From: a virus
DNA: 13,531 bases
Virus genome (UHGV): UHGV-0241990
Strand: one strand, 5' to 3'
Shown piece by piece: positions 2,492 to 10,935 of the stretch. The position numbers were made by a program, and so were the translations under genes. The notes beneath the pieces were generated by a model. It was not told the DNA's origin and searched no databases. It saw only the letters and a list, made by a program, of their open reading frames with translations. Each line of letters opens with the position of its first letter. The first letter of the stretch is position 1.

Positions 2492-3202
2492 ATGTTTAAG
2501 GGAATTATTGTTACACTATTAGCTTGCATTGTATTTGGTCCATGGGTGTTAGTAATTGCTTTGCCTCTATTACTAGTGATGAGTGTAGGGAAAGATATTA
2601 AAAAGCTGCATGCACAATATAAAGAGCACCCTGGAGCAGTCATAACAAGTCTGGTTATAGTCGCGGGGCTTATTGGCTGGGCCTACTTCTCTCTTCCCAC
2701 AGGAAATACAGCTGCAAATGTGGAAGAGGTGAACTCACAGCATGAAGAAGTGGTTAACGTCTCCGATCTTACATGGGAGGACAGGGTAAAAGCATATAAA
2801 TATATTTATGGTGTGCTAGATTGCGATCTCTCTAAAGATATAGGATGCACAGATAAATACCAGATTCACGCCTGGCTGTGGAATCATGCAGAAAAAGGTG
2901 CTTGCAACCAGATTAAAGTGGCGGTTAACAGTGGGGCACCTACTGGGAAAAATAAAGATGTTCTGACGGTATGGTGCAAGGATGTAAAAGGCAATGATCG
3001 TTGGCTACAGATGCGCCACATGGACGGTGTAAGCATAGAAACTACACGAACGGCTCGATGGTATAACGGTGAACTCGTTCACGAAGCATGGCAGAATAAC
3101 GCCTGGATCACTGAGGGAACACTCCTGAATGTTGATATGGAAGCATTGAAGATGCTTAATGAGATGTACGGTGAAGCCGTAGAAACCTCTCCTATGAAAT
3201 AA
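2492..3202 (+). CDS. membrane-anchored protein, 236 aa (two N-terminal TM helices plus soluble Cys-containing domain)
   Basis: ORF from track. Hydrophobic stretches IIVTLLACIVFGPWVLVIALPLLLV and ITSLVIVAGLIGWAYF, then a ~170-aa hydrophilic domain with several Cys. Followed immediately by a strong terminator. Confidence 0.85.
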   Translation: MFKGIIVTLLACIVFGPWVLVIALPLLLVMSVGKDIKKLHAQYKEHPGAVITSLVIVAGLIGWAYFSLPTGNTAANVEEVNSQHEEVVNVSDLTWEDRVKAYKYIYGVLDCDLSKDIGCTDKYQIHAWLWNHAEKGACNQIKVAVNSGAPTGKNKDVLTVWCKDVKGNDRWLQMRHMDGVSIETTRTARWYNGELVHEAWQNNAWITEGTLLNVDMEALKMLNEMYGEAVETSPMK

Positions 3203-3218
3203 CCACACCAACCCACCA

Positions 3219-3245
3219 GGGGGCCATCACGGCCCCTTTTTTATT
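3219..3245 (+). terminator. rho-independent terminator
   Basis: GGGGCC (3220-3225) / GGCCCC (3231-3236) stem, ATCAC loop, then TTTTTTATTT; 17 nt after the stop of the 236-aa gene. Confidence 0.85.
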
Positions 3246-3248
3246 TAT

Positions 3249-3303
3249 CCCCTATTTAACCCCTATTTAATGGGTATTTAATGCCTATTTATTGATTTAA
3301 TGG
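3249..3303. repeat. five tandem 11-bp units with TATTTAA core
   Basis: cccctatttaa (3249), cccctatttaa (3260), tgggtatttaa (3271), tgcctatttat (3282), tgatttaatgg (3293). Period is one helical turn. Confidence 0.6.
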
Positions 3304-3783
3304 TTTTGGGCATTGTTGACAGTGTAAGAGAGAGGATGTAACCCTTTTTTGCAATACTAATAAAATCAATAGCTTAGCTCAATTGGCCTTTTCTCTATTT
3401 TTGTCAAATTTAACATACCCTCAAAAACTGCAAAATCTGGCTGCAAGATTATCTGCAGCTGGATTTCTTACACCTCAATTTGTAGTATCACCCTGACTAG
3501 TTTGTGCATAAAATGAACAGTTTTTAACATTTCCTATTCACCTGGTAACCACACAAAAAGCTAAAAACGAGGCACAGATAATCTTAGAGGCCTGTTTTCT
3601 TGTTATCACTCTGGGAACGTCGTAGAAGTGATTTTGATGAAAGATGACCTACCCTATTACACCCCCATTTTTTGTTATCACAATTGCATCCTGTGCGGTG
3701 TATGGCTGTGTGCTGAAAGCGGTCTTGGGTGTGGGTGTCAGAAATATCCATTAGCGGTATTAATACCCGTCAGATGTTCGTCT

Positions 3784-3820
3784 GAGGTGCCAGGCAGGCG
3801 CTCCCCCACCTCCCTTTTTT
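3784..3820 (+). terminator. orphan terminator-like hairpin plus T-run in non-coding DNA
   Basis: GAGGTG (3784-3789) pairs CACCTC (3807-3812) with GC-rich inner pairing, followed by CC TTTTTT (3815-3820). No annotated gene upstream on this strand. Confidence 0.4.
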
Positions 3821-4368
3821 CTTCTAACAATTCTCAAATATCACACCACTGCCGACCACGTTGCTATTATGTTAATTCTTAAGCTTTGCTGTATGTTGTG
3901 CACATTATTTATTCAGGTGGCTGTACGTAAATTCTGTGCCCACTGATCATGATTTTTAAATCAGATTTTGTAGTGCGCTTTATTAGTGTAGATAAGATCT
4001 ATTATGTTAAATGCAATTTTCCCAACCCTTCAAATCAATGACTTACATGTAAGCATGCACTAACACCCCACACAGCACATTAGACGTATAGATGGCTATA
4101 TCCCACATTTTTGATTGTTTTGTAGTCATTCCCCTGATCATTTAACCAGTATAGTTTGTTCTCTGTAGACCACAAAACCGGAATTTACATCTGATTAACA
4201 TAATCTGTTAGCATGATCACCATTACCCACACAACAATAACCCCATGCAAGCCTCTTCAGGCAATTTATCGGCGTGTTGGTGTGAACAGTCTTTCATGTT
4301 CTTTATGTATTCATTGTCCTGTGTGAGGGAAGGATGGACTGCCCCAGGGGCCATAGTTATGACACCCG

Positions 4369-4404
4369 GTCAACATAACTGTTGATAAAATCAACGGGTG
4401 TTGA
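4369..4404. promoter_or_regulatory. pair of palindromic operator-like sites TCAACA-N4-TGTTGA and ATCAAC-N4-GTTGAT
   Basis: 4369-4384 TCAACATAACTGTTGA and 4389-4404 ATCAACGGGTGTTGAT share half-site TCAAC / GTTGA; centres 20 bp apart. CCCCAGGGG palindrome at 4341-4349 just upstream. Confidence 0.45.
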
Positions 4405-4525
4405 TCTGCATATTTCCCACACATGAGAGAAAATCAAAGCAAAGAGAGAGGAGAGAGGTTTGCTAGTCAAAATAGGTCAATTGACGGCTAATACAGAGTA
4501 AAAAATCAGATGCAATCACTCCCCC

Positions 4526-4795
4526 ACCTGTTGGGATTTCCTACAACCCCTTTCAGTCATACTCAGGCACCACACCCCGGTAAATATTACCGCACTAACC
4601 TGTAAAGAATTTTCACACCTGTGTGTTTATACAGTCATACTCTCCTGTTTTGCAGTCATTGCACCCATGATACACAGCCCCTAACCTGTCAAAATATTTT
4701 ACTACCCCACCAATAATACGGCCCATACCTGTAAAATATTTTTACTACTACCTGTCAAAATCTTTTACTACTACCTGTAAAAATATTTGACACTA
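4526..4795. repeat. iteron array: ACCTGT-containing ~23-bp repeats with near-palindromic core GT(C)AAAATATTTTAC
   Basis: Well-conserved copies starting near 4598, 4684, 4727, 4750, 4773 (spacings 86, 43, 23, 23 bp). Degenerate ACCTGT/CCTGT copies at 4526, 4617, 4644. Inverted repeat CGGTAAATATTACCG at 4578-4592. Confidence 0.65.
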
Positions 4796-4825
4796 ATAGA
4801 TAAAGTAATAGACCACACAATAGAT

Positions 4826-4859
4826 CCCCCCCTAACCCCCCAGGGGGGAATGGGGAGGG
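4826..4859. repeat. homopolymer C/G tract palindrome (C7-TAA-C6-A-G6-AAT-G4-A-G3)
   Basis: Read directly: ccccccctaaccccccaggggggaatggggaggg. CCCCCC A GGGGGG centred at 4842. Shorter CCCCAGGGG relative at 4341-4349. Confidence 0.5.
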
Positions 4860-5377
4860 ATCAGAGAGTGGGGAAGGTTTTCTAAGGGAAAAGCTTAACC
4901 CACAAATGAAAGCCTAAAGAGCATTAGCGACTCTTTAGGCAATATGTGTGTGGGGGTGACAATGTATTCCATACATGACACGTCACCCAATTGTGTGTGG
5001 GAGTGCCTACGGCACCTTAGCCCATGGCTAAGCCCTTCGGGTCTGTGTGTGGTCCGGCGAATGCGTCAGCATGAGGCCCACATGTGGACCGCTGCCGAAA
5101 GCTTGCCAGCGCCGGAAGGAGGCAGCAAAGAGTCTCCCGCGCGGGTGCACGCACACATATATAAAGGATACACTCATAAATCGAAAATAAGCCCCCTAAA
5201 TGGCCTTCTGGCTGCATTAACTAGTGTGAGTAGTGCAATTGCATTACCTGACCTCTAAATCGCGTTAGAATCGATTTTAGAGCGCTTAAGGCAAAAAGTG
5301 CCCTCCCTTGTGGGCTTGCTTGTGTCTGCTGTGCAGGCTATGGCACCTATAGCACACCTAAATGATAATAATTCTCA

Positions 5378-5406
5378 TTGACAATTGGTTGACAATATGA
5401 TAAGAT
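5378..5406 (+). promoter_or_regulatory. sigma70-like promoter candidate P1 with duplicated TTGACAAT
   Basis: TTGACA 5378-5383, 17-bp spacer, TAAGAT 5401-5406 (4/6). A second TTGACAAT at 5389-5396, 11 bp downstream of the first. Confidence 0.4.
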
Positions 5407-5441
5407 TATAAATAGGGGGAGAAACAGATCCGGAGGTCAAT

Positions 5442-5591
5442 GTGGAAATTACTGATGCAATAGCGATCATCAACCTGGCTGTACTGTGGTGCGGTGTTGC
5501 CTACATAGCCGGAGTAACTGCAATCGACAATCTTGAAGAAAAAATGATAGATAAATACAAAAAGATTGTTGACAATTTGACGAATGTCTGA
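5442..5591 (+). CDS. small GTG-initiated ORF, 49 aa, predicted TM helix (VEITDAIAIINLAVLWCGVAYIAGVTAIDNLEEKMIDKYKKIVDNLTNV)
   Basis: GGAGG at 5432-5436, 5 nt before GTG 5442; stop TGA 5589-5591. Not in track (short, non-ATG start). Protein-like composition, unlike the antisense track ORF 5406..5606. Confidence 0.3.
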   Translation: MEITDAIAIINLAVLWCGVAYIAGVTAIDNLEEKMIDKYKKIVDNLTNV

Positions 5592-5597
5592 TAAAAT
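5569..5597 (+). promoter_or_regulatory. near-consensus sigma70 promoter P2 for the plus-strand operon
   Basis: TTGACA 5569-5574, exactly 17-bp spacer, TAAAAT 5592-5597; predicted start ~5604, giving a ~120-nt leader before ATG 5725. Confidence 0.6.
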
Positions 5598-5724
5598 ATA
5601 AAGCATAGGGTAATTCTCATCATAGTGAATTTCCTTTAGTAGACTGGCGGGGGCTTGTCTTAAGTTCCCGTTTCTTTTTAATCATATATCGCACAGGTTA
5701 GTGAGCTAACAGGAGGCTTATACT

Positions 5725-5940
5725 ATGGCTAAAACCGGACCGATCAGCCAGCTGGTAAACTGGACTACTGACGAAATCGTCGAGAACGTACTTAAGGGGA
5801 ACTTCCGCAAAACTTCCGTTTATGCATTCATTCGTAAACATAAAGGAGAATATCCACACATTGAAGAAGCAATTTTAAAACTAAATTGCATTCGCCTTGA
5901 GCGGGAACTGGCTAAATACACCAATAACATTAATAAATAA
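5725..5940 (+). CDS. hypothetical small protein, 71 aa
   Basis: ORF from track; AGGAGG SD 5711-5716, 8 nt before ATG 5725; first gene downstream of P2. Confidence 0.7.
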   Translation: MAKTGPISQLVNWTTDEIVENVLKGNFRKTSVYAFIRKHKGEYPHIEEAILKLNCIRLERELAKYTNNINK

Positions 5941-5953
5941 TTATGGGGGAATT

Positions 5954-6820
5954 ATGGCAAGTAATTACGGGGAAAATTTTACTCCCCTTTTTAAACGTTT
6001 CATCAAATACATTTTTAAAAATCCGATTGCAAAAACTACAACCAATAAAGAAAGATTTCACTTAAACTTGTTGGAAATGACAATTTACGGTGAGATGGCA
6101 AGTTTTAATGCTGCAGGTTGTGAAATATTTATCTCTGAACAGAGATTAGCAGACGATTATGATGTTTCAAGACCGACAGTTATTAACTCGATTAAATCTC
6201 TAGAAAATGCCGGGCTTATTTCAATAGTTAAAAGTAAAGGCAAATCTAATCATTACAAACTGCTAATTACCCCTGATCAGCTTGGCAAGATGTGTGATGA
6301 GCAGGGTATTAAAACCTCCGACAGTGTGGGATCTAGTAAAGAGGCCCCCGATAATCAACAGGAAGCCCCAAAACAACCCACACAGCAAGCTAAAAAGGCC
6401 GAGGTGGTGCAATTGCCTACCCAACCTAAGAACGAGCGCAGAGAGCGCTTTAGAGACGCTGGCAAACGTGAGAAAGATGAGCACGGTTATCCGATTCTGA
6501 CAAGTGATGAGATGAACGCCAAATACAAAGGGATTCAGGCAACATTTAAGGATCGGAAGAGCATTAAACTCTCTGAATTGCGAGATGCATTTTACGGGCC
6601 GGAGGTGATGGATAAAATTAAAGGCACCGTTGAGGGTAGAATCTGGAAAGAAGATGATTATTGGCATTTAACAGAACAGGCCCTTAAGGTGGCTCAACAT
6701 GTAGCTAAAAGAGGTAAAACAATTATCATCGATTATATTAGTCATGGCTATGATGCCCCGAAAGAAAGATTGTGGAACAACTGCAAGCTTGTAAAAGGCG
6801 AATTAACCATTACAAAATAA
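5954..6820 (+). CDS. winged-HTH DNA-binding protein, candidate replication initiator or iteron-binding regulator, 288 aa
   Basis: Track ORF 5897..6820; start moved to in-frame ATG 5954 (GGGGGA upstream, avoids 44-nt overlap with previous gene). HTH segment ISEQRLADDYDVSRPTVINSIKSLENAGLISIVK, a Q/P/K/E-rich linker, then a distinct C-terminal domain. Lies ~1.2 kb downstream of the iteron array. Confidence 0.8.
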   Translation: MASNYGENFTPLFKRFIKYIFKNPIAKTTTNKERFHLNLLEMTIYGEMASFNAAGCEIFISEQRLADDYDVSRPTVINSIKSLENAGLISIVKSKGKSNHYKLLITPDQLGKMCDEQGIKTSDSVGSSKEAPDNQQEAPKQPTQQAKKAEVVQLPTQPKNERRERFRDAGKREKDEHGYPILTSDEMNAKYKGIQATFKDRKSIKLSELRDAFYGPEVMDKIKGTVEGRIWKEDDYWHLTEQALKVAQHVAKRGKTIIIDYISHGYDAPKERLWNNCKLVKGELTITK

Positions 6821-8555: not shown

Positions 8556-8792
8556 ATGAATATCTACGAAAAGATTTATCAAAAACTGGTTAAGGACTCC
8601 GAAGACACGCCCGAAGGGGTGACAATAGGTCACCTGCCAGAGGCAGCGAAAGAGGGGTCCACCATTATTAAAAGTAGCTCCCACACAGAAGGCCTCTCAA
8701 TCGAAGAGCTGGCGGAGAAATATAATATTGATAAAGAGGCCCTGAAAAGGGCTATTTCATTATCAAAATCTTTAAGACAGGGCGAGGTATAA
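8556..8792 (+). CDS. hypothetical protein, 78 aa
   Basis: ORF from track; tightly packed between neighbours (stop 8790-8792, next ATG 8794), consistent with translational coupling. Confidence 0.7.
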   Translation: MNIYEKIYQKLVKDSEDTPEGVTIGHLPEAAKEGSTIIKSSSHTEGLSIEELAEKYNIDKEALKRAISLSKSLRQGEV

Positions 8793-8793
8793 A

Positions 8794-10935
8794 ATGGCAA
8801 TGAAGGAAGTAGCCAGACTAACAAACGTTATTTACTGGGACTCTGATAAATCCTCCTGGCGAAAAGAAGTTAAACGGCTTGAGGATTATAAAAAATCCTG
8901 GAAGAAAGCTACCGACGATATAGCTAAAGCTGATTTTAAATCTAATCAGGCTGTGCTCAGAACACAAAGAACACGCGCTAAGGTGGAAGAGCAGATAGCC
9001 AGAGCTCAGAGGAAACAACAGGAAGCACAGAAGAAACAACGTGCTCAGGCTGTCAGCCGTCTGACCGGGGGCAACAATGCCGAACTTAACTCTATGCGCA
9101 AGTTCTACCAACAACAAGCCAGAGAAGCCGCCAGACAACAAAAACTGTTAGATCGTAGTGTTGGAGATGTTCAGCACAGAAAAGCACGTGTAGGGGCCAA
9201 CAGTGCACGAATCAGCAGCATGTTTGATGGATCCCTGGTTGCTCAGTTCCAAAGCAGAATCCAGAGAGTTAATGCTGATTATGCTAAAGGGGCTATTAAC
9301 CTGCAGACCTATAATCAGAAAATGGCCCGACTCAGAGCTGAAATGAAGATGGCCTCTAGAGATGCCACCACCTTTCAAAGCAAGCTAGATAAACTGGCAG
9401 CAGGTGCGAGCAAGGTGCATAACAATATCGGCAAGCTTAACAGTGCTTTAGGCAAGATAGCCATTGGCCTGACCGCTGCAGGATGGGGTATTCAGAGAGC
9501 TGTTAGTGGTGCTATGAGCGCTCAATCTGACCATAACTCAGCCTATTATGGTTTGCTTGCTCAGAACAAGGATGATAAAGCCAAGACTGACCAGCAGATG
9601 GCTTTTATCGAGAACACAGCCAACACCTACGGGATGGATCAGCGTGAGATGGAGGGTGGCTATATGCGTTTTGCTGCCGCTACTCCCACCATGAAGGAAT
9701 CTGATAAGCAGGCTCTTTTTGAGGCTATGGCGATTAAAGGCCGCTCAGTGGGTGCTACTGGCGAGCAACAGAACAGGGCGCTTGTTGCGGTCCAACAAAT
9801 GGCTTCAAAAGGAAGAGTAGCTGCGGAAGAGCTGCGTGGCCAGCTGTCAGAAGCCTTTGCAGGCTCACAACAGGATTTTCAACAGGCCGCTATTGATGCC
9901 GGAATCATCAAGAGTGCCCAGGAATTCGATAAAGCCATGGCAGATGGCAAAATCACCCTGGACAAGCTTCTTCCCTCTCTAGTGAAAATCTGGGGTGCTG
10001 CAAAAGAAACTGACGCTTTTGCTAAATCTATGCAACAGCCTGAAGTGGCACTGCAGAGAATGAGCAACCAGTTTTTTAAACTAAAGCAATCCTTTATGGG
10101 TGTTGTGGATCCTGCGGATGGCGTCATTACCCTGTCAGAATCCCTTATTTATATCTTTGAAGATTTATCCTCAATTTTCAGTAGCTCAGGTGAAGATGCC
10201 AAATCTCTCGGAGTTATGTTAGGCGAGGCAATGCATGAAATTTATTTTTGGGTCAACTGGGCTTGGTGGTGGACTAAGAAGATCGCCAAAGGCATTGGTG
10301 AGACGTTAGGCTGGACCGCACAGGATGCAGGCGAGAAGATTGGCCAGGTTGTGACCGCCCTGTTAGGCCTGAAGGTTGCAACAAGCATTGCTGGCATGGT
10401 TGGCGGCCTTATTTCCATGCTGTGGAAACTTAAAGCGGCGCTTAGTGCTTTAGTCGGTGTTGGTGATATCAGCACTGGAGGCACAGCAGGCAAAGGCAGA
10501 CCAGGTAGAGGCGGCTTTATCGGGAAAGCAGGCAGACTTGGAGGAAGATTTGCAGGTCCGGCAGGGATTGTTTTGACAGGATTTGACATTGCAAATAGCT
10601 TAGATTCCTACTGGCAGAATCCTGATAATCAGCGGCAGGAAGGAGCTAAACATCCTGAATGGTTAACCAGTATGGTTAATAGTGCTTCTAGCTTCCTTGG
10701 CCTTGATTATCGTCTGGACGCAGGACGCTACATTACCAGACCAACACCAACGGGTGGTATTGCTATTCAGAATGGAGGCTATCAGCCGACTCAAATCAGT
10801 GTAGTTCCGCAGGGTGAGATCTCCGGCAAGTGGGAGATAACCATTGATGAGGGGGGAATTGCCAGGGTGATCCAGAAGGAAGTCAGCGATCAGCTGGATT
10901 GGAAAGCCACACAGGAAGCTAATCAGCTTTTCTAA
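8794..10935 (+). CDS. tape-measure-like protein, 713 aa
   Basis: ORF from track. Long charged Q/K/R/E-rich helical N-terminus; central segment GEQQNRALVAVQQMASKGRVAAEELRGQLSEAFAG resembling the conserved tape-measure domain (recalled). Hydrophobic segments (VVTALLGLKVATSIAGMVGGLISMLW) and a Gly-rich stretch (GGTAGKGRPGRGGFIGKAGRLGGRFAG). Confidence 0.8.
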   Translation: MAMKEVARLTNVIYWDSDKSSWRKEVKRLEDYKKSWKKATDDIAKADFKSNQAVLRTQRTRAKVEEQIARAQRKQQEAQKKQRAQAVSRLTGGNNAELNSMRKFYQQQAREAARQQKLLDRSVGDVQHRKARVGANSARISSMFDGSLVAQFQSRIQRVNADYAKGAINLQTYNQKMARLRAEMKMASRDATTFQSKLDKLAAGASKVHNNIGKLNSALGKIAIGLTAAGWGIQRAVSGAMSAQSDHNSAYYGLLAQNKDDKAKTDQQMAFIENTANTYGMDQREMEGGYMRFAAATPTMKESDKQALFEAMAIKGRSVGATGEQQNRALVAVQQMASKGRVAAEELRGQLSEAFAGSQQDFQQAAIDAGIIKSAQEFDKAMADGKITLDKLLPSLVKIWGAAKETDAFAKSMQQPEVALQRMSNQFFKLKQSFMGVVDPADGVITLSESLIYIFEDLSSIFSSSGEDAKSLGVMLGEAMHEIYFWVNWAWWWTKKIAKGIGETLGWTAQDAGEKIGQVVTALLGLKVATSIAGMVGGLISMLWKLKAALSALVGVGDISTGGTAGKGRPGRGGFIGKAGRLGGRFAGPAGIVLTGFDIANSLDSYWQNPDNQRQEGAKHPEWLTSMVNSASSFLGLDYRLDAGRYITRPTPTGGIAIQNGGYQPTQISVVPQGEISGKWEITIDEGGIARVIQKEVSDQLDWKATQEANQLF

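Follow-up and report, generated by a model that had tools for sequence, protein, structure and literature searches.

Replication origins of the iteron type are known from phages and plasmids alike: in ori-lambda, four iterons occur together with an AT-rich region and a flanking palindrome, and oriV of plasmid RK2 combines iterons with an AT-rich and a GC-rich region. Priming signals include the complementary-strand origin of phage G4 with its three hairpins, the G-site downstream of oriR of plasmid R1, and the single-strand initiation (ssi) signals ssiA and ssiB of RSF1010, while origin transcripts and primer RNAs are represented by RNA II of ColE1 and by the R-loop origins oriF and oriG of T4. 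Short palindromes also occur as mobile promoter/stem-loop cassettes (PeSL) in T4-type phages and as repetitive extragenic palindromes and bacterial interspersed mosaic elements (REP/BIME) in bacteria, and satellites can carry packaging sites of their helpers, as seen with the cos site of P4 and with cos-type phage-inducible chromosomal islands. Here, we analyze a GC-rich, hairpin-forming segment (positions 4940-5300) of UHGV virus genome UHGV-0241990, the whole 13,531-nucleotide (nt) stretch of which is referred to as the window. We tentatively read this segment as the GC-rich, cis-acting arm of a plasmid replication-origin region that would serve replisome loading or priming, and its core as a counterpart of a non-coding element of the large, virulent rV5-like (Vequintavirus) phages.

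By megablast, the region was matched only on Escherichia coli plasmids, in circular records of 13.2-13.9 kb, and it is present in 7 of 5,426 complete E. coli genomes with not a single chromosomal match; one of the copies is a 39.6-kb trimer. Because matches are confined to E. coli plasmids of 13.2-13.7 kb, we take the window to be essentially one entire circular replicon of about 13.5 kb, and an origin must therefore exist somewhere on it. As in the iteron-type origins of lambdoid phages and plasmids, direct repeats, an AT-rich stretch and a GC-rich palindromic flank follow each other in the same order, and the initiator is an O-like/DnaD-like winged-helix protein, here with iterons and initiator that co-vary. 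Unlike in these systems, the flank spans about 400 nt and is built from exchangeable cassettes and a conserved core, and this core is common to an unrelated large virulent phage with a different initiator-like protein and different repeats. The G4, G-site and ssi signals, which are likened to the locus by their described architecture only, share with it adjacent short hairpins beside an origin, a short conserved sequence and, in at least one relative (L006), a strand-symmetric arrangement; in contrast to them, a CTG start triplet stands beside only some of the units. No gathering-threshold match to Rfam 15 was found in the window, and positions 3200-5750 gave chance-level scores only (E 0.6-4.6); the element lies outside every described family and is best classed with the structured regions that accompany origins, as a variant common to a large virulent phage group and an undescribed plasmid-satellite family. 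The order of the region is iterons, AT-rich stretch, G/C hairpin, hairpin P0, shuffling cassettes, core and a block of protein-binding type, with the following features:

4590-4790, five ACCTGTMAAAATATTTT-type direct repeats, each partly palindromic with an AT-rich centre
4793-4821, AT-rich stretch CTAATAGATAAAGTAATAGA with GATC and one CCACACA (4813-4819); its first part is invariant in relatives
4822-4862, G/C-homopolymer hairpin GATCCCCCCC TAA CCCCCCAGGGGGG AAT GGGGAGGGATC
4912-4940, hairpin P0 (GCCTAAAGAG / CTCTTTAGGC), 10-bp stem with 5 GC pairs and a 9-nt loop
4945-4953, plus strand, TGTGTGTGG copy 1
4955-4987, cassette A, a nested hairpin: GGTGAC (4955-4960) and GTCACC (4982-4987) around ATGTAT (4962-4967), TCC, ATACAT (4971-4976)
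4992-5000, plus strand, TGTGTGTGG copy 2
5003-5043, cassette X, three abutting hairpins: GTGCC TAC GGCAC, CTTAGCC CAT GGCTAAG, CCC TTCG GGT
5044-5052, plus strand, TGTGTGTGG copy 3, at the 5' edge of the core
5046-5146, plus strand, core of about 100 nt (5053-5146 behind motif copy 3), homologous to a non-coding element of Vequintavirus phages
5061-5072, small hairpin of the core, ATGC GTCA GCAT
5082-5088, conserved ATGTGGA of the core
5091-5096 and 5121-5126, stem P3 of the core (GCTGCC/GGCAGC), enclosing the conserved 24-nt loop GAAAGCTTGCCAGCGCCGGAAGGA (5097-5120)
5130-5142, conserved GAGTCTCCCGCGC of the core
5145-5163, alternating purine-pyrimidine tract GTGCACGCACACATATATA; the alternation is kept over 17-26 nt in relatives with differing sequences
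5185-5300, 3' block, highly conserved, with invariant columns in alignment A1
5196-5204 and 5255-5263, two direct CTAAAT(G/C)GC motifs of the 3' block
5230-5247, palindrome GTAGTGCAATTGCATTAC, with a G.T wobble on the plus strand
5253-5281, hairpin CTCTAAATCG..CGATTTTAGAG of the 3' block
5378-5406, plus strand, strong sigma-70-like promoter, TTGACA-17-TAAGAT with extended -10, invariant in relatives
5897-6820, rep gene for a 307-aa winged-helix protein (Rep)

The element was compared across 10 copies (alignment A1), one metagenome contig (L010) and nine further readable public copies; its core is single-copy and present in all 21 plasmid copies examined. Window positions 5082-5146 align with nucleotides 131,730-131,794 of Escherichia phage MaxTheCat (MZ501094) at 83% identity over 65 nt (local blastn, E 6e-12), and the phage copy is flanked by TGTGTGG at 131,686 and 131,809. 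The phage element measures about 340 nt and occurs in all 119 Vequintavirus records searched (87-100% identity), where most records leave it without annotation or place a tiny coding sequence (CDS) over it. Eight diverse phage copies show 95% identity column by column, with changes located mostly in loops. Besides the core, only one other non-coding stretch is common to plasmid and phage. The 3' block is partly common to the phage as well (GCCCCTAAATCGC, TGCAATCGCA), and L005 and L032 additionally carry the 5' hairpin of the phage element with two compensatory pair changes (CTCGCC/GGCGAG to CTCTCC/GGAGAG, and GGCA/TGCC to GTCA/TGAC).

Three versions of the core can be distinguished: V1 in the window, in L001-L005 and in L010, V2 in L006-L009 and L028, and VP in the phage. 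All of them share ATGTGGA and GAGYCTCCCGCGC, and in all of them stem P3 occupies the same place and is complementary with unrelated sequences (V1, GCTGCC/GGCAGC; VP, ACCGAC/GTCGGT; V2, GTCCGGAT/ATCCGGAC). This covariation was read by hand, as MAFFT with RNAalifold misaligned the stems of the three versions. The 24-nt P3 loop GAAAGCTTGCCAGCGCCGKAAGGA is common to V1 and VP; the V2 loop differs, and the V2 core had no match among the phages. Whether a plasmid carries V1 or V2 does not track its type of Rep, which fits a partner other than Rep. We infer that the core is the functional heart of the segment, held constant while initiator and repeats are swapped; it was probably copied from, or is common to, the rV5-like phage element, and would act as a handle onto machinery used by both.

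The surroundings of the phage element resemble those of the plasmid core. Directly upstream lies bas57_0217, whose 116-aa product carries the annotation 'putative transcriptional regulator'; its family matches are HTH_36 and replication-initiator PHROGs, among them those matched by the plasmid Rep, and it aligns with the winged-helix region of Rep (BLASTP, E 9e-5). On the 3' side of this gene, four copies of GTCCGTGATACGGACAC precede a tract of about 140 bp with roughly 80% A+T and GATC sites, which is followed by the element. Viewed at phage positions 131,360-131,470 (L013:31360-31470), these are four 21-bp direct repeats, each of them an inverted repeat (GTCCGTGATACGGAC). We regard the repeats and the AT-rich tract of MZ501094 as an undescribed candidate replication origin of rV5-like phages; the rV5 genome paper reports a skew analysis only and did not locate the origin (PMC3606486). 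In the phage, the cumulative GC skew is lowest near the locus of the element, and the skew there follows the direction of transcription. A divergent rV5-like contig (L024), in which the neighboring gene is 83% identical, carries the same element behind another upstream gene (143 aa) and other repeats (CTGATACATATTTGCATCAGAT). Thus, in plasmid, phage and L024 alike, the DNA-binding protein and the repeats vary as a pair, whereas the structured module joined to them is constant and keeps its orientation.

The corresponding pair on the plasmid is Rep and the repeats at 4590-4790, which we read as its iterons. Rep matches HTH_36 and HTH_11 together with PHROG replication-initiator, O-like and DnaD-like families; the replicon has both a winged-helix initiator gene and direct repeats of about 20 bp that change together with it. 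Among 11 relatives, six flavours of the iteron correspond to six groups of Rep that are distinguished by the N-terminal third of the protein. The flavours differ in flanks and centre (GTAAAATATTTT, TGGAATTTCC, GAAGATTTCTC, GGTAAATATTTCC, GGTAAAAATTACC), the sixth being an unrelated ATCAAYATATCAA set. Remnants left by other flavours are found in the window at 4526-4545 (CACCTGTTGGGATTTCCTAC) and 4574-4594 (CCCCGGTAAATATTACCGCAC). A side observation concerns L005 (540-1150) and L032, which have, after window position ~4880, an insertion of about 600-700 bp that contains three repeats of another set and, behind them, the phage-type 5' hairpin; plasmids of this type carry an unrelated Rep (17-24% identity), and the insertion looks like a swap of the whole origin and initiator module.

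All of this lies in a gap of 2.2 kb (window ~3210-5440) that is free of CDSs in all relatives, and within this non-coding DNA the GC skew changes sign at 4800-4950, from -0.458 at 4501-4800 to +0.096 at 4801-5100. The G/C-homopolymer hairpin at 4822-4862 is, with -14.1 kcal/mol, the strongest hairpin upstream of a minus-strand TGTGTGG, and its C.A mismatch on the plus strand becomes a G.U or G.T pair on the minus strand. The lengths of its C and G runs (4826-4849) differ by 1-3 nt between otherwise near-identical plasmids, which may represent real slippage or a sequencing error of long-read assemblies. Hairpin P0 has an invariant stem and a variable loop in relatives, is replaced in L005 by a different hairpin, and forms the centre of the cassette arrangement. 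It is terminator-like on the minus strand, and on that strand only, because there a T-rich tail (TTTCATTTGT) follows; the L005 hairpin has no such tail.

Between P0 and the core, the plasmids carry zero to three hairpin units, each preceded by TGTGTGG. The window has the order A-X, L026 has X-A, L027, L029, L031 and L033 have X2-A-X1, L034 has X2-A, and L003 has none; L004, L005 and L032 contain a longer cassette Y. Cassette X belongs to a family of units of about 45 nt that is present in zero to three copies per relative, in both orientations and at several places, including positions downstream of the core (L003) and downstream of the 3' block (L010, L029). Its members combine stems of 5, 7 and 3-5 bp with loops of mostly 3-4 nt; three cassettes have cUUCGg loops. 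In an alignment of six X-type units (A7), 98.8% of the cells are paired, compensatory changes affect 7 of the 14 pairs, and neither a one-sided change nor a G:U pair occurs among the 84 cells; none of 500 shuffles was as good. A covariance model built for X (R1), to which the window sequence at 5003-5043 scores 55 bits, recovered inverted copies at L006:2457-2497 and L008:7-46. The former lies across P0, flanked by CCCACAAAG and CCACACAAAG, so that TGTGTGG is proximal to the centre on both strands, an arrangement that reads as divergent, origin-like symmetry; the latter is situated far from the origin, in front of a gene for a 236-aa protein.

Owing to their shuffled order, variable copy number and inverted copies, the cassettes act as small, exchangeable and probably mobile palindromic units at TGTGG-type sites, and they are probably not essential to origin function. 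They resemble PeSL and REP/BIME in being short, intergenic palindromic units of variable number, order and orientation that are bounded by a recurring short motif in a phage-related genome. In contrast to PeSL, they lack a promoter and consist of three abutting hairpins, and unlike REP/BIME-type palindromes of the host they are absent from the chromosomes of the 5,426 complete E. coli genomes. A further 52-nt unit with three hairpins (CACCC GAAG GGGTG AC..GTCAC CTGGC ATG GCCAG TGAAAG) is found twice in the plasmid, at 1875-1926 and 8603-8653, and one of these copies falls inside an annotated 78-aa open reading frame (ORF). It is the second non-coding piece shared with the phage, where it lies at 90,900-90,951 (L012:40900-40951) in a 2.5-kb 'non-coding' box, directly preceded by repeats of the ATAGTTGCC type and an AT-rich stretch; covariation is seen in one stem of the unit (CTGGC/GCCAG versus CTGCC/GGCAG).

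The repeated motif was already recorded in an earlier note on this DNA, which had been made from the sequence alone and had placed three copies of TGTGTGTGG roughly 50 bp apart. They are indeed present at 4945, 4992 and 5044 and lie 47 and 52 nt apart. The extended tail (G/A)GTG claimed for them holds for copy 2 (..GG AGTG) but not for copy 1, which has one extra G (TGTGTGT GGGGG TGA), or for copy 3, which continues with TCCGG. Direct reading of the sequence also bore out the compound hairpin at 4955-4987 and the inverted repeat CTTAGCC (5016-5022), CAT, GGCTAAG (5026-5032). Going beyond this note, we observed that TGTGTGG is enriched across the whole element, of which it is the most over-represented 7-mer, and that it bounds interchangeable cassettes; likewise new is the proposal, put forward with reserve, of an iteron-type origin region whose right-hand arm is formed by the segment. 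The window contains 19 TGTGTGG/CCACACA sites (792, 1478, 1505, 2024, 2081, 3549, 4068, 4227, 4417, 4813, 4947, 4994, 5046, 5854, 6378, 8506, 8681, 10907, 12773) against 1.39 expected and a maximum of 7 in 200 dinucleotide-preserving shuffles. This enrichment of more than 10-fold in the plasmid compares with one of about 3-fold in phage MZ501094 (48 versus about 16.5 expected). In both genomes the sites cluster in non-coding regions, with some inside coding regions, and in the early region of the phage they are placed in 5' leaders, with a stem-loop on one side and the ribosome-binding site on the other. The motif directly adjoins the hairpin units, and CTG precedes it in some copies only; a minority of copies resembles a DnaA box, TGTGGATAA (1507-1515) being a perfect one. 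To the left of position ~4880 the plus strand reads CCACACA (3549, 4068, 4227, 4417, 4813), to the right it reads TGTGTGG (4947, 4994, 5046), and elsewhere the orientation is mixed, with inverted pairs at 1478/1505 and 2024/2081. An interpretation of TGTGTGG as an oriented, replication-linked motif was considered and rejected (runs test p = 0.09; not generally beside hairpins).

From the observed anatomy, homology, covariation and Rep-iteron linkage, we infer a role in replication with DNA rather than RNA as the active form. In the mechanism that we propose, Rep bound to the iterons would open the AT-rich stretch, and the adjoining module, once single-stranded, would fold into hairpins, the key one being P3, which would present its conserved 24-nt loop. 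Recognition of these hairpins by a shared replisome component, either a primase-helicase of the helper or a host factor, would lead to loading of the helicase or to first priming. The iterons would give each replicon its private specificity, and the core would open the phage machinery to the plasmid. Hairpins in unwound DNA fit the data because the stems are perfect Watson-Crick helices with short loops and both strands fold equally well, and also because there is no upstream sigma-70-like promoter and the L006 cassettes diverge around P0. With DNA parameters, positions 4905-5170 fold with z = -3.66 on the plus and z = -4.60 on the minus strand, and with RNA parameters positions 4905-5345 fold with z = -3.58 and z = -3.49, respectively; in neither case did any shuffle fold as well. 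Stable hairpins in single-stranded DNA with covarying stems, as looked for in a single-strand initiation site, are therefore present. If this is true, the element is the first candidate replication-origin module for rV5-like phages, a group widely used in therapy and biocontrol, and the satellite keeps a private initiator and private iterons and shares a cis element with its helper; it would also point to a common, undescribed plasmid-satellite family in E. coli. Even if the element were an RNA or a packaging site, it would still be conserved, structured, unannotated and common to helper and satellite. The more far-reaching proposal that the core, as single-stranded DNA or RNA, is an unrecognized cis module beside an rV5-like initiator-like gene, captured by widespread satellites to gain access to helper replication (or packaging) machinery, with private iterons and TGTGTGG-bounded cassettes shuffling around it, is possible but somewhat doubtful.

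Several observations weigh against an origin function, and some of them bear on the RNA reading. The cassettes vary from zero to three copies and also occur far from the origin, the AT-rich stretch of the plasmid is short (~30 nt, against ~140 nt in the phage), and the phage 'initiator' is merely a 116-aa winged helix-turn-helix protein whose repeats could equally be repressor operators. The left/right bias in motif orientation is not significant (the runs test given above for the phage; 13 of 19 sites in the plasmid), and the linkage of TGTGTGG to hairpins was not found genome-wide, with none outside the origin region. G.T wobbles that pair on the plus strand only are present in the 5230-5247 stem and its variants (L005, L008, L006), at the base of P3 in Aya and in L024, and in the phage hairpin ATAGAAAAGCTC/GAGTTTTTCTAT; together with the C(UUCG)G loops of three cassettes they hint at a structured plus-strand RNA. 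Transcribed from a promoter outside the sigma-70-like type (e.g., phage-specific), such an RNA could be either a long leader or stable and non-coding, and could act in regulation, anti-defence or antitermination or as an origin transcript. It would also account for the like orientation to downstream genes in phage and plasmid, for the extreme conservation of the phage copy with its changes in loops, for the covarying stems and for the plus-strand fold. We nevertheless hold it to be rather less than probable: neither plasmid nor phage has an Rfam match at gathering or permissive thresholds (only tRNAs were matched at the phage locus), a sigma-70-like promoter upstream or a terminator downstream (the strong plus-strand promoters of the plasmid are all located downstream), the cassette family has mostly triloops and is free of G:U pairs, and a crude count of hairpin mismatches has no plus-strand bias (6 G.T versus 11 A.C, partly redundant). 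The sole RNA-specific long-range helix proposed, P1 (GUGUGGGAG/CUCCCGCGC), was rejected, as it is broken in L024. A separate lead from the resemblance of phage GCCGGGCCUCCAUAG to conserved region I of RNase P was dropped, as Alma, bov11 and L005 do not keep its CCAUAG part and none of the RNase P models gave a match. A transcript of the opposite strand, running from a promoter-like site at 5395->5368 to P0 (4940->4912) and, like RNA II of ColE1, activating the origin or acting as a primer, is very unlikely. Its promoter-like site has 9 of 12 matches, terminator-like sites exist at 4940->4912 and 4851->4824, the minus strand folds nearly as well as the plus strand, and the hairpin at 4822-4862 pairs better on it; yet the promoter is weak and overlaps the strong plus-strand promoter, L005 has a hairpin without a T tail in place of P0, the phage copy offered no equivalent promoter or terminator, and the wobbles in the 5230-5247 stem favor the plus strand. 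The locus does share with ColE1 RNA II and T4 oriF/oriG a highly structured stretch of several hundred nt adjoining a putative initiation site, and nearby G-run and C-run sequences (here 4822-4862), but it has no convincing read-through promoter in either direction, and in contrast to ColE1 the replicon possesses iterons and a Rep protein.

The remaining explanations concern packaging, selfish DNA and a protein. The plasmid has capsid and tail genes and neither terminase nor portal, and therefore needs helper packaging machinery; rV5-like phages are circularly permuted headful packagers (PMC8407724, PMC13211470), and the 13.5-kb plasmid amounts to about one tenth of the helper genome. The core, as one of only two shared non-coding stretches, might thus be a pac mimic recognized by the helper terminase, comparable to satellite cos/pac sites in that a non-coding sequence is common to a small, terminase-less element and a large phage with partly duplicated structural genes. 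This is unlikely, since the phage element lies ~4 kb from terL and adjoins an initiator-like gene and repeats instead of terminase genes, with no recognizable small-terminase gene nearby, and since the V2 core, found in plasmids of the same family, differs in its P3 loop and is unmatched in the phages. The gene downstream of the phage element, gp220, was tried as a small terminase and set aside: it has no Pfam, NCBIfam or PDB match and six homologues only, and the homologue in a distant phage sits among DNA-metabolism genes without the element upstream. The cassettes alone may be selfish passengers, but that the whole segment consists of mobile hairpin units at TGTGG-type sites without any replicon function is improbable. 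Copy number, order and orientation would agree with this idea, as would insertions in L003, L010 and L006 with duplicated motifs of the TGTGG/CCACAAAG type on their flanks, the distant copy at L008:7-46 and the second subfamily at 1875-1926 and 8603-8653; it leaves unexplained a core that is single-copy in every plasmid copy examined and conserved in 119 phage genomes, the covariation shows selection for pairing, and E. coli chromosomes are free of copies. Finally, the ORFs listed in the earlier note, 4944..5258 (plus strand, 104 aa, with an ATG start) and 5017..5217 (minus strand, 66 aa), do exist, and the view expressed there that both are non-coding stands. The former is missing or cut in 10 of the 10 relatives first compared (the closest has 74 aa and a different start), cassette indels of 41-52 nt shift its frame, and it has no Pfam match; the latter is not kept in relatives either and gave only a sub-threshold, chance-level Pfam match (E 0.15, below the curated cut-off), and no CDS is called at the segment in the annotation of relatives. 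Both are spurious, and a small protein gene at 4944-5258 is extremely improbable. The note's preference for a structured RNA or DNA element over a gene is thus upheld by the unconserved ORFs, by the compensatory hairpin changes and by the core kept in rV5-like phages; the covariation analysis it had suggested gave compensatory changes in half of the X pairs and a P3 that is complementary in three versions.

Downstream of the core, the 3' block is probably a protein-binding or regulatory region ahead of an early promoter. Its two CTAAAT motifs change together in L031 (C to A in both, yielding ATAAAT), which suggests two sites for one protein. The promoter at 5378-5406 lies downstream of the structured segment and serves a rightward operon that consists of a 49-aa ORF (5442-5591), the product of which resembles a small membrane peptide, and of rep downstream of it. 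A near-identical strong promoter-like site is located 191 nt further on (5378-5406, TTGACAATT..GATAAGAT; 5569-5597, TTGACAATT..GATAAAAT), so that the pair brackets the 49-aa ORF. Between positions corresponding to window 5300 and 5340, L002, L005-L008, L010, L026 and L029 contain an extra block with a near-consensus promoter (TTGACA-18-TATAAG) and, ~45 nt later, a GGGG..CCCC TTT hairpin; this block may be a small RNA gene that is missing from the window.

The remainder of the replicon codes for a major capsid protein (according to the annotation of relatives; the gene spans the record start), several helix-turn-helix proteins and the following proteins related to those of rV5-like myophages:

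8794-10935, tape-measure gene, 26% identity
11621-12079, minus strand, tail-completion-like gene, 42% identity
12076-12852, minus strand, tail-tube-initiator/Dit-like gene, 46% identity

Capsid, tape-measure, tube-initiator and tail-completion proteins are thus encoded by the plasmid itself, and neither gene annotation nor Pfam and PHROG matches revealed a terminase or portal gene on the plasmid. With this gene content, the plasmid looks like an undescribed plasmid-borne satellite of Vequintavirus (rV5-like, about 136 kb) phages. The 49-aa protein next to the element is indexed in 1,657 blocks of public assemblies, and in 1,292 of these the longest contigs measure 10-20 kb; the family is common in E. 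coli, though undescribed. No paper found in our literature search describes satellites of Vequintavirus or the rV5 origin, and searches with sequence motifs returned primer lists only. A protein scan of IMG/VR yielded no homologues, and a DNA-pattern scan gave no match in IMG/VR and GTDB genomes and one metagenome contig (L010). The DNA pattern of the P3 loop recovered from public collections one rV5-like contig (L015) and one chance match (L014), which was rejected as a homologue because it is unrelated GC-rich coding DNA. ARAGORN detected neither tRNA nor tmRNA. A type III toxin-antitoxin RNA array and a CRISPR array can both be set aside for the segment; its units differ in sequence, only a boundary motif of 7-9 nt recurs, and gene annotation and family matches revealed no such toxin or cas gene on the replicon.

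Two further non-coding stretches of the window deserve mention. Positions 3210-4590 form ~1.4 kb without a conserved ORF and are C-rich on the plus strand. A second CDS-free region (1180-2170) is situated between divergent gene blocks; it is GC-rich, contains long hairpins (e.g., ATAGCCCCGC..GCGGGGCTAT at ~1303-1335) and includes the perfect DnaA box mentioned above (TGTGGATAA, 1507-1515). The cumulative GC skew of the window has its global minimum near 1.8 kb, and the region 1180-2170 could therefore be another, or the true, origin.

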